Source of the DNA: Escherichia coli
Lineage (GTDB): Bacteria > Pseudomonadota > Gammaproteobacteria > Enterobacterales > Enterobacteriaceae
DNA: 64,000 nt
Strand: one strand, 5' to 3'
Assembly: GCF_013122565.1 (NCBI RefSeq)
Contig: NZ_CP053258.1
In this document: positions 43,942 through 45,618 of the stretch, piece after piece
How positions within the stretch are numbered: position 1 is the stretch's first letter
Layout of the letters: each line of letters begins with the position of its first letter
Program-made: the position numbers and the translations under genes
The notes under the pieces: model-generated
What the model saw: the letters and a program-made list of their open reading frames with translations, nothing else
What the model was told of the DNA's origin: nothing
Databases searched by the model: none

Positions 43942-44472
43942 ATGGCTATCACTGGCATCTTTTTCGGCAGCGACACCGGTAATACCGAAAATATCGCAAA
44001 AATGATTCAAAAACAGCTTGGTAAAGACGTTGCCGATGTCCATGACATTGCAAAAAGCAGCAAAGAAGATCTGGAAGCTTATGACATTCTGCTGCTGGGC
44101 ATCCCAACCTGGTATTACGGCGAAGCGCAGTGTGACTGGGATGACTTCTTCCCGACTCTCGAAGAGATTGATTTCAACGGCAAACTGGTTGCGCTGTTTG
44201 GTTGTGGTGACCAGGAAGATTACGCCGAATATTTCTGCGACGCATTGGGCACCATCCGCGACATCATTGAACCGCGCGGTGCAACCATCGTTGGTCACTG
44301 GCCAACTGCGGGCTATCATTTCGAAGCATCAAAAGGTCTGGCTGATGACGACCACTTTGTCGGTCTGGCTATCGACGAAGACCGTCAGCCGGAACTGACC
44401 GCTGAACGTGTAGAAAAATGGGTTAAACAGATTTCTGAAGAGTTGCATCTCGACGAAATTCTCAATGCCTGA
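43942..44472 (+). CDS. fldA: Flavodoxin 1
   Basis: Start trimmed to [27 protein letters not shown] (176 aa), FMN-binding signature. Confidence 0.97.
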
Positions 44473-44672
44473 TGTGATGCGGCGTAGACTCATGTCTACG
44501 CCGTATTAATAGATAATGCCAATCAAAATAATTGCTACAAATTTGTAACTTTTGCTGTTGTACCTGTACAATGTCCCGGTGTTCAAGTGGCCTTGCCGTT
44601 GTAAATGTAAGCTGTGCCACGTTTTTATTAACAATATTTGCCAGGGACTTGTGGTTTTCATTTAGGCGTGGC

Positions 44673-44691
44673 AATTCTATAATGATACGCA
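44673..44691 (+). promoter_or_regulatory. Fur box at the uof/fur promoter
   Basis: TATAATGATACGCATTATC closely matches the 19-bp Fur consensus GATAATGATAATCATTATC and overlaps the uof start codon. Confidence 0.6.
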
Positions 44692-44768
44692 TTATCTCAA
44701 GAGCAAATTCTGTCACTTCTTCTAATGAAGTGAACCGCTTAGTAACAGGACAGATTCCGCATGACTGA
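44682..44768 (+). CDS. uof: Upstream ORF of fur (leader peptide)
   Basis: 28-aa ORF MIRIISRANSVTSSNEVNRLVTGQIPHD whose stop (44766-44768) overlaps the fur ATG at 44761. Confidence 0.7.
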   Translation: MIRIISRANSVTSSNEVNRLVTGQIPHD

Positions 44769-45207
44769 TAACAATACCGCCCTAAAGAAAGCTGGCCTGA
44801 AAGTAACGCTTCCTCGTTTAAAAATCCTGGAAGTTCTTCAGGAGCCGGACAACCATCACGTCAGTGCGGAAGATTTATACAAACGTCTGATCGATATGGG
44901 TGAAGAAATTGGTCTGGCTACGGTATATCGCGTACTGAACCAGTTTGACGATGCTGGTATCGTCACCCGCCACAATTTTGAAGGCGGTAAATCCGTATTT
45001 GAACTGACACAGCAACATCACCACGATCACCTGATCTGCCTCGACTGCGGCAAGGTTATCGAATTTAGTGATGATTCCATCGAAGCGCGTCAGCGTGAAA
45101 TTGCCGCAAAACATGGCATTCGCCTGACTAACCACAGTCTCTATCTTTACGGTCACTGTGCCGAAGGCGATTGCCGCGAAGATGAGCACGCGCACGAAGG
45201 CAAATAA
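44761..45207 (+). CDS. fur: Ferric uptake regulator
   Basis: 148 aa, MTDNNTALKKAGLKVTLPRLKILEVLQEPDNHHVSAEDLYKRLIDMGEEIGLATVYRVLNQF... Confidence 0.98.
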   Translation: MTDNNTALKKAGLKVTLPRLKILEVLQEPDNHHVSAEDLYKRLIDMGEEIGLATVYRVLNQFDDAGIVTRHNFEGGKSVFELTQQHHHDHLICLDCGKVIEFSDDSIEARQREIAAKHGIRLTNHSLYLYGHCAEGDCREDEHAHEGK

Positions 45208-45291
45208 GCCAGCCTGAATGAGAAAAAGCCAACCTGCAGGTTGGCTTTTTTATGCAAGGAAAATAAGAAAAGCGAGAGTTACAGCTCTCTC

Positions 45292-45618
45292 TTATTTGTT
45301 ATTACTGCGAATTTCCTGCCAAACTTTATCACAATCGGCTTTCACCGCCTGATCATTTCCGGTTTGCGTTGCACGCAGACACTGCTGATAATCCAGTACG
45401 CGTACACTTTCCTGGTCGGCAAACTGCTGATGTTGTTTCTCTTTCTTCAGCACGTTTAACACGCTCTGGCAGGCTTCAATTTTTTCCGGCGAACCTTGCG
45501 CGGTGTTGATACAGGCGCTGTATGCCTCTTTCAGACGGCTGTCTTCCTGTGGCGCGGTTGATTGCGCACAAGCCACCAGCCCCGATGCCATCATGGCGAT
45601 GAGAATCAGTTTTTTCAT
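45292..45618 (-). CDS. chiQ: Chitosugar-induced lipoprotein
   Basis: 108 aa, signal peptide with lipobox (LVAC). Confidence 0.85.
   Translation of the reverse strand: MKKLILIAMMASGLVACAQSTAPQEDSRLKEAYSACINTAQGSPEKIEACQSVLNVLKKEKQHQQFADQESVRVLDYQQCLRATQTGNDQAVKADCDKVWQEIRSNNK

Follow-up and report, generated by a model that had tools for sequence, protein, structure and literature searches.

A probable two-layer control region upstream of fur in Escherichia coli, with its layers on different transcripts

In enterobacteria, Fur acts as the master regulator of iron, and indirect control by a small RNA (sRNA) through a coupled upstream open reading frame (uORF) has its textbook case in uof-fur. 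In the fur leader, a promoter, a Fur box, the start codon of uof and the start of fur are packed into a short segment of DNA. A previous reading of this segment, made from its letters (hereafter, the sequence-only reading), recognized the published uof-fur unit and placed both autoregulation by Fur and coupled translation of uof and fur in it. The question raised by this locus is whether these two mechanisms can act on one and the same mRNA and, if they cannot, which parts of the leader serve each of them.

In this study, we analyzed the uof-fur leader in a 64,000-nt stretch of E. coli DNA (the window, i.e., the entire stretch, to which coordinates refer unless stated otherwise), mapped published transcription start sites (TSSs) onto it, and compared it with 80 fur loci, each taken from a different species, of the families Enterobacteriaceae, Erwiniaceae, Pectobacteriaceae and Hafniaceae.

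Anatomy of the leader and its identity with K-12

Region 44673-44768 is the known uof-fur leader of E. coli, and it is an ordinary example of it. Alignment with K-12, which the sequence-only reading had named as a check, revealed not a single difference in the 300 nt upstream of fur. Since the leader is identical to that of K-12, the K-12 literature applies directly to the window. K-12 uof (b4637, annotated as 'RyhB-regulated fur leader peptide') has the same position and arrangement, and the Fur protein is 100% identical to Fur of E. coli and E. albertii. The region is present at >=95% identity in 5,424 of 5,426 complete E. coli genomes; under the match, fldA, uof ('fur leader peptide'), fur and chiQ are annotated in all eight E. 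coli records listed. With regard to the window itself, there is thus nothing new in this region, as it is the K-12 sequence. For the larger segment 44400-45300, the best E. coli match was the baboon isolate PapM-32-1 (99.8% identity), followed among the records listed by matches of 99.3%, and 2,150 genomes fell into the 95-99% band.

The anatomy of the leader can be read directly from the DNA (Table 1). A 28-codon upstream ORF overlapping the fur start, as the sequence-only reading had it, is borne out by the sequence and the ORF list: an ATG at 44682-44684 is followed by 28 sense codons and a TGA, directly 5' of fur on the same strand, with the stop located inside the start of the fur ORF. 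The encoded peptide matches the NCBIfam equivalog NF011344 over its full length (1-28/28; 85.2 bits with a cutoff of 71, E 1.8e-24). The two ORFs do overlap, and the stop codon, which had been placed on the fur ATG itself, occupies fur codons 2-3, 2 nt past the ATG triplet. The Shine-Dalgarno (SD) sequence of fur forms an anti-SD duplex of -4.0 kcal/mol, and that of uof is weak (-3.6 kcal/mol).

Table 1. Features of the uof-fur leader and adjacent genes in the window
Feature	Position	Strand	Description and source
fldA (flavodoxin 1)	43942..44472	+	K-12 gene order, RefSeq; gives read-through transcripts with uof and fur
Candidate upstream promoter 'Puof'	44543..44572	+	TTGTAA, 18-nt spacer, TACAAT; promoter scan 9/12
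Pfur, sigma-70 promoter	44655..44683	+	-35 TTTTCA 44655-44660, 17-nt spacer, -10 TATAAT 44678-44683
Fur box TATAATGATACGCATTATC	44678..44696	.	16/19 to consensus; spans -13 to +6 of Pfur, contains uof ATG
uof	44682..44768	+	28 codons and TGA, fur leader peptide MIRIISRANSVTSSNEVNRLVTGQIPHD; sequence, ORF list, K-12 annotation, NF011344
Pfur transcription start (A)	44691..44691	+	SMRT-Cappable-seq TSS 710,716 mapped from K-12
UCA, uof codon 6	44697..44699	+	MiaB-dependent decoding according to PMC11448259
GAGCAA	44701..44706	+	Candidate pairing core to RyhB nt 42-47 UUGCUC; putative
RNA stem-loop UCACUUC-UUCUAAU-GAAGUGA	44713..44733	+	7 bp, about -8.5 kcal/mol; uof codons 11-18
fur Shine-Dalgarno AGGA	44747..44750	+	Inside invariant block AACAGGACAGATTCCGCATG; alignment columns invariant
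uof/fur overlap ATGACTGA, 8 nt	44761..44768	+	fur start codon, then uof stop; proposed coupling site
fur (ferric uptake regulator)	44761..45207	+	148 aa; ORF list, RefSeq, K-12

The uof frame has no stop for 50 further codons upstream (44532-44681) in either the window or K-12, and it contains an ATG, at 44571, that coincides with the TACAAT(G) of an upstream promoter-like site. No ATG was found at this position in any relative with an intact uORF (0/36), and unrelated in-frame ATGs at -118 and -97 occurred only in a divergent Erwinia metagenome-assembled genome. An upstream extension of uof starting from this ATG was dismissed because of the missing counterparts and is probably meaningless.

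Promoters, the Fur box and the uof start codon

The best promoter-like site of the region in a promoter scan is Pfur (10/12), and its TTTTCA-17-TATAAT arrangement is kept in nearly all of the 80 Enterobacterales loci. SMRT-Cappable-seq (PMC6131387, Supplementary Data 2) provides three relevant K-12 starts: TSS 710,716 on the reverse strand, assigned to an operon of fur (b0683) only; TSS 711,521, assigned to fldA-uof-fur; and TSS 711,951, assigned to ybfE-fldA-uof-fur. Using the K-12 coordinates of uof (710,639-710,725) and the identical sequence, we mapped 710,716 to window position 44691, which follows the -10 hexamer by 7 nt and the A of the uof ATG by 9 nt. Two papers (one of them PMC7867234) likewise describe Pfur as lying inside the uof ORF and Puof, or +1uof, as lying upstream of uof.

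Because TSS 44691 is downstream of the uof ATG, the Pfur mRNA lacks the uof start codon and cannot express uof. The published TSS data thus separate two kinds of transcripts: those initiated at the fldA and ybfE promoters carry this codon, and those from Pfur do not. Accordingly, uof is available only on transcripts begun upstream (from the candidate Puof, fldA and ybfE promoters), and autorepression by Fur and uof-fur coupling would act on different mRNAs. The published uof-fur unit recognized by the sequence-only reading stands, with the refinement that the two mechanisms it mentions would belong to separate mRNAs.

Three upstream sources of such transcripts have to be considered. TTGTAA-18-TACAAT at 44543-44572 is a likely candidate for Puof. 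Nearly all loci of Enterobacteriaceae have kept its TACAAT hexamer, which lies approximately 195 nt before fur, and transcription from this promoter would begin near 44580, giving an mRNA with the uof ATG. No Puof TSS was found in the SMRT-Cappable-seq table (PMC6131387), and the supplements of the 2016 Cappable-seq study contained no TSS entries near the locus. The second source is the promoter of fldA, a gene whose start in the window was placed from the length of K-12 fldA (531 nt), and the ybfE promoter, located further upstream, also yields read-through transcripts with uof-fur. Directly after the fldA stop, at 44480-44503, there is a perfect 10-bp hairpin, CGGCGTAGAC-TCAT-GTCTACGCCG, lacking a T-run; such a hairpin fits read-through from fldA into uof-fur. 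An attenuator-type terminator was not seen between uof and fur.

The Fur box does cover the uof ATG, as proposed, with a register different from the one first suggested. The best match to the 19-bp consensus GATAATGATAATCATTATC begins at 44678 and has 16/19 matches, and the 19-mer beginning at 44673 starts 5 nt too far upstream and has about 4/19 by our own count. The box includes the -10 hexamer and TSS 44691. Protection of 44678-44696 by Fur-Fe2+ has been reported. From its location at -13 to +6 of Pfur, and with Fur binding taken from the literature, the box would be a classical occlusion operator; PMC7867234 also states that the Fur operator overlaps the promoter. Since the Pfur transcript starts downstream of the uof ATG, the position of the box over this codon is promoter geometry and not a translational device, and it should not be read as control of uof translation.

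Could the consensus match simply reflect a -10 hexamer in an A+T-rich promoter, with autoregulation being absent or indirect? The TATAAT hexamer does supply five of the 16 matching positions, and fur autoregulation is described in the literature as only 'moderate' or 'slight'. The match, however, runs 13 nt past the hexamer and includes the 3' half-site CATTATC. Across both strands of the 64-kb window, it is the sole site with <=3 mismatches, and no match at this threshold occurred in 100 dinucleotide-preserving shuffles. In addition, the TATAATGAKACGCATTAYC core of the box is conserved across the genera of Enterobacteriaceae, and autoregulation of E. coli fur by Fur is on record in the literature (including PMC7867234). 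We regard a chance match of this kind as very improbable.

Fate of the upstream ORF and a conserved hairpin in relatives

Each of the 80 loci was assigned to a class according to the fate of the ORF starting at TATAATG. This ORF is open in the uof frame and ends at ACTGA in 36 loci, as it does in the window; these belong to Escherichia, most Citrobacter, Enterobacter, Kosakonia, Kluyvera, Leclercia, Phytobacter, Pseudescherichia, Pluralibacter gergoviae and Siccibacter. It continues beyond the usual stop in one locus (Enterobacter asburiae), is open in another frame and ends at ATGA in seven (Mangrovibacter, Cedecea neteri, Buttiauxella sp. B2), and is in frame with fur with no stop in four (Buttiauxella izardii and agrestis, Dryocola). 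It is closed early in 24 loci, which include Salmonella arizonae, C. sedlakii, Klebsiella oxytoca, Raoultella, Atlantibacter, Pantoea, some Erwinia, Edwardsiella and Hafnia. In the remaining eight (Trabulsiella, Dickeya, Pectobacterium, some Erwinia), the TATAATG-type ATG is absent. Conservation of the uORF in relatives, a point on which the sequence-only reading depended, was therefore found in 36/80 loci and many Enterobacteriaceae genera. At the same time, the uORF is not universal among enterobacterial fur leaders. By frame breakage or removal of the AUG, it was lost at least eight times independently (S. arizonae, C. sedlakii, Citrobacter sp. Awk 4, Enterobacter sp. Bisph1, Klebsiella/Raoultella, Pluralibacter UBA7423, Trabulsiella, Entomohabitans).

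Several classes have features of their own. In Klebsiella oxytoca and Raoultella terrigena, the long uORF is closed and a 14-codon mini-uORF, MEVDRLATGQIPHD, is found in the uof frame; its ATG lies about -37 to the fur ATG (at 1501 in these loci) and it has the same ACTGA stop. Being downstream of the equivalent of the Pfur start, this mini-uORF would be present on all fur transcripts. In Enterobacter sp. R1, Buttiauxella izardii, Buttiauxella agrestis and Dryocola, the ATG of TATAATG is in the fur frame, at -66 to -69 from the fur ATG, with no stop between the two, and transcripts started upstream could here encode Fur with 22-23 extra N-terminal residues. In six loci from Mangrovibacter, Cedecea neteri, Enterobacter sp. 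Ag1 and Buttiauxella sp. B2, the TATAATG ORF runs in another frame to the ATGA overlap, and its peptide is unrelated to Uof. This pattern suggests that selection, if any, is on termination at the fur start and not on the peptide.

The geometry of uof and fur is partly forced. The final two bases of the Pfur -10 hexamer, together with the G that follows, make up the uof ATG, and this codon is conserved as a part of TATAAT+G. In almost every relative, fur codons 1-3 (ATG ACT GAY) contain a stop for each of the two alternative frames (ATGA and ACTGA); the uof stop is conserved because fur starts in this way, and the 8-nt overlap because these codons (Met-Thr-Asp) are conserved. Conservation of the uORF is restricted to some lineages, and the uORF is built from elements that are under constraint for other reasons.

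These observations bring up the explanation that the uORF is a by-product with little function. Its frame would stay open through the constraints of the Fur box, the hairpin (see below) and the fur ribosome-binding site, most fur mRNA would come from Pfur, and RyhB would act directly on the leader RNA. The stops forced in both alternative frames at the fur start, the conservation of the -10 hexamer in lineages with and without the uORF, the repeated breakage of the uORF, the start of the Pfur transcript downstream of the uof AUG and the weak uof SD all agree with it. Other features of the same loci speak against it. Intact uORFs differ in length by 3 nt, having 28 or 29 codons (variants -79 and -82), so the frame is preserved. 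In several frame-changed lineages (Mangrovibacter, Cedecea, Buttiauxella sp. B2), the ORF begins at the same ATG and continues to terminate at the fur start; in Klebsiella and Raoultella, a mini-uORF has been retained in the uof frame.

Codon-level analysis of 22 distinct 28-codon uof sequences has weight on both sides of this issue. Codons 2-5 coincide with the Fur box. Codons 7-15, in the middle of uof, were neutral at the peptide level (pN/pS 0.94), as expected of a by-product. Codons 16-26, on the other hand, had a pN/pS of 0.15 in the uof frame only, as against 2.07 and 1.22 for the two remaining frames. With about eight variable columns in related sequences, this is a hint of coding constraint on codons 16-26.

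The middle of uof is constrained at the level of RNA by a hairpin (Table 1), whose loop corresponds to the hypervariable codons 14-15. The stem-loop is part of the minimum-energy fold of the long leader. When segment -58 to -23 was folded one by one in 67 distinct leaders, the mean energy was -7.7 kcal/mol, compared with -4.5 kcal/mol for shuffles and -4.0 kcal/mol for a neighboring segment. In almost all leaders of Enterobacteriaceae, the end of the 3' arm falls at -28 to -30. Stems differ by genus and stay complementary (CACTTC/GAAGTG, ACTTCC/GGAAGT, CGCTCA/TGAGCG, GCTCC/GGAGC, GCCC/GGGC). A covariance model was built from the gap-free -79 group and used to search the remaining loci. In the resulting alignment, which is fitted to the model and includes one reverse-strand echo, compensatory changes occurred in six of eight pairs and 90% of cells were paired; 0-1 of 500 shuffles were as good, and slid-partner controls had 33-54% of cells paired. 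Within the gap-free -79 group, the stem hardly varies, and the covariation test in this group alone was uninformative.

MAFFT and RNAalifold, applied to 70 leaders, missed the hairpin because loop lengths differ. Whole-leader fold stability was ordinary (z = 0.28 for 44690-44800 and -0.22 for 44580-44800), and within the leader only the local hairpin stood out. The hairpin is kept whether the uORF is intact or broken. In S. arizonae, C. sedlakii, Citrobacter sp. Awk 4 and Enterobacter sp. Bisph1, the 1-nt deletions that close the uORF fall in the hairpin loop, and a uORF of little function would account for such losses. Judged from these comparisons, no other RNA feature located between the promoter and the ribosome-binding site of fur is as widely conserved as the hairpin. 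Its role may be in leader stability or structure, or in access of RyhB or Hfq.

No Rfam family matched the leader, and the only matches, below threshold, were at the fur/chiQ terminator. One such match, on the minus strand at 45217-45296, was to the enterobacterial sRNA STnc370 (36.1 bits with a gathering score of 54, E 0.004); it lies in the fur/chiQ convergent intergenic region and overlaps a hairpin, AAAAAGCCAACCTGCAGGTTGGCTTTTTT (about 45224-45252), that looks like a bidirectional terminator. The hairpin of the leader, conserved and lacking an Rfam family, is worth mention when the model of RyhB and uof is revisited.

RyhB, the two layers and known systems

In the secondary literature (including PMC11448259), fur translation is described as coupled to uof translation, which is said to be required for efficient fur translation, and RyhB, itself repressed by Fur, is described as blocking uof initiation and thereby reducing Fur synthesis. 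RyhB residues G44/C45 are reported to be essential for uof/fur repression. The statements of reviews on the need for uof translation and on the block of uof initiation stand against a uORF of little function. One study reports that RyhB lowers Pfur-derived fur mRNA and not Puof-derived uof-fur mRNA, as would be expected if RyhB acted directly on the leader RNA. If RyhB acts on the Pfur mRNA, its site lies downstream of 44691. An effect of RyhB on an mRNA that lacks the uof AUG is awkward for RyhB control mediated purely by uof. With the arguments of the preceding section taken into account, we nevertheless consider a by-product uORF with direct action of RyhB on the leader to be unlikely.

Pairing of RyhB with the leader was not confirmed by our computational searches. 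GAGCAA is the leader's only perfect complement of >=6 nt to the RyhB core containing G44/C45. An exact k-mer search of the leader against RyhB found two six-mers versus 2.56 expected by chance, which is not significant. Full-length duplex folding of RyhB and the leader returned a meaningless 130-nt duplex. The best duplex with RyhB nt 30-70 in a sliding search (-17 kcal/mol) was located at the upstream promoter and was weaker than the mean best value for random 350-nt pieces of the window (-19.3). The authors of PETcofold noted that the published RyhB-uof interaction was not predictable computationally. The UCA codon associated with MiaB occurs in 16/36 loci with an intact uORF (Escherichia, most Citrobacter, Pseudescherichia, Enterobacter sp. 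ENT03), and codon 6 is CCA, CCG, CTN or another codon elsewhere.

A further possibility is that RNA and DNA elements, i.e., Pfur with the Fur box, the stem-loop (-48 to -28) and the invariant block for ribosome binding at fur, rather than the uof peptide or ORF, form the functional core conserved in this leader. If so, uof would be a lineage-restricted elaboration present on minority, upstream-started transcripts only, and RyhB would control the main Pfur mRNA independently of uof, perhaps through the hairpin region or mRNA decay. The effect of RyhB on Pfur mRNA and not Puof mRNA and the repeated natural loss of the uORF fit this possibility, which we hold to be real and yet rather doubtful.

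The reading that we prefer, and consider highly probable, is that the E. coli uof-fur control region is a composite of two layers that are located on different transcripts. In the transcriptional layer, iron-loaded Fur bound to the box would occlude RNA polymerase at Pfur, and Fur would weakly repress its own gene; the Pfur mRNA begins in uof codon 4 and gives no uof expression. In the translational layer, for which coupling and the dependence on RyhB and MiaB are taken from the literature, transcripts begun upstream (candidate Puof, fldA and ybfE promoters) would carry the uof AUG. Ribosomes would stop at the UGA (44766-44768), 2 nt past the fur AUG, and fur initiation would follow by coupling, according to the published model. 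When iron is scarce, RyhB and MiaB-dependent reading of UCA would lower uof translation, leading to less Fur.

Compared with known systems, the locus of the window is closest to K-12 uof-fur (b4637-b0683), with which it shares the 28-aa peptide, the length of the overlap, the Fur box, the promoter elements and the gene neighborhood (ybfE-fldA-uof-fur / chiQ-chiP). The leaders do not differ, and the two loci are distinguished within fur by three changes, all in third codon positions. Other Enterobacterales fur leaders share the -35 and -10 elements of Pfur, an overlapping Fur-box-like sequence and the fur ribosome-binding block, and those of other Enterobacteriaceae also share the leader hairpin. 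In the leaders of Salmonella arizonae, Klebsiella, Yersinia, Erwinia and Dickeya, in contrast, the uORF is closed, frame-shifted, fused to fur or devoid of its ATG; Y. enterocolitica is described as lacking uof (PMC7867234). A mechanistic parallel is the action of the sRNA GcvB on thrL (possibly also ivbL), where, as with uof, translation of a short upstream ORF is blocked at initiation by an sRNA, with lowered expression of the gene behind it. Control by thrL and ivbL involves transcription attenuation, whereas translational coupling at overlapping stop and start codons is proposed for uof.
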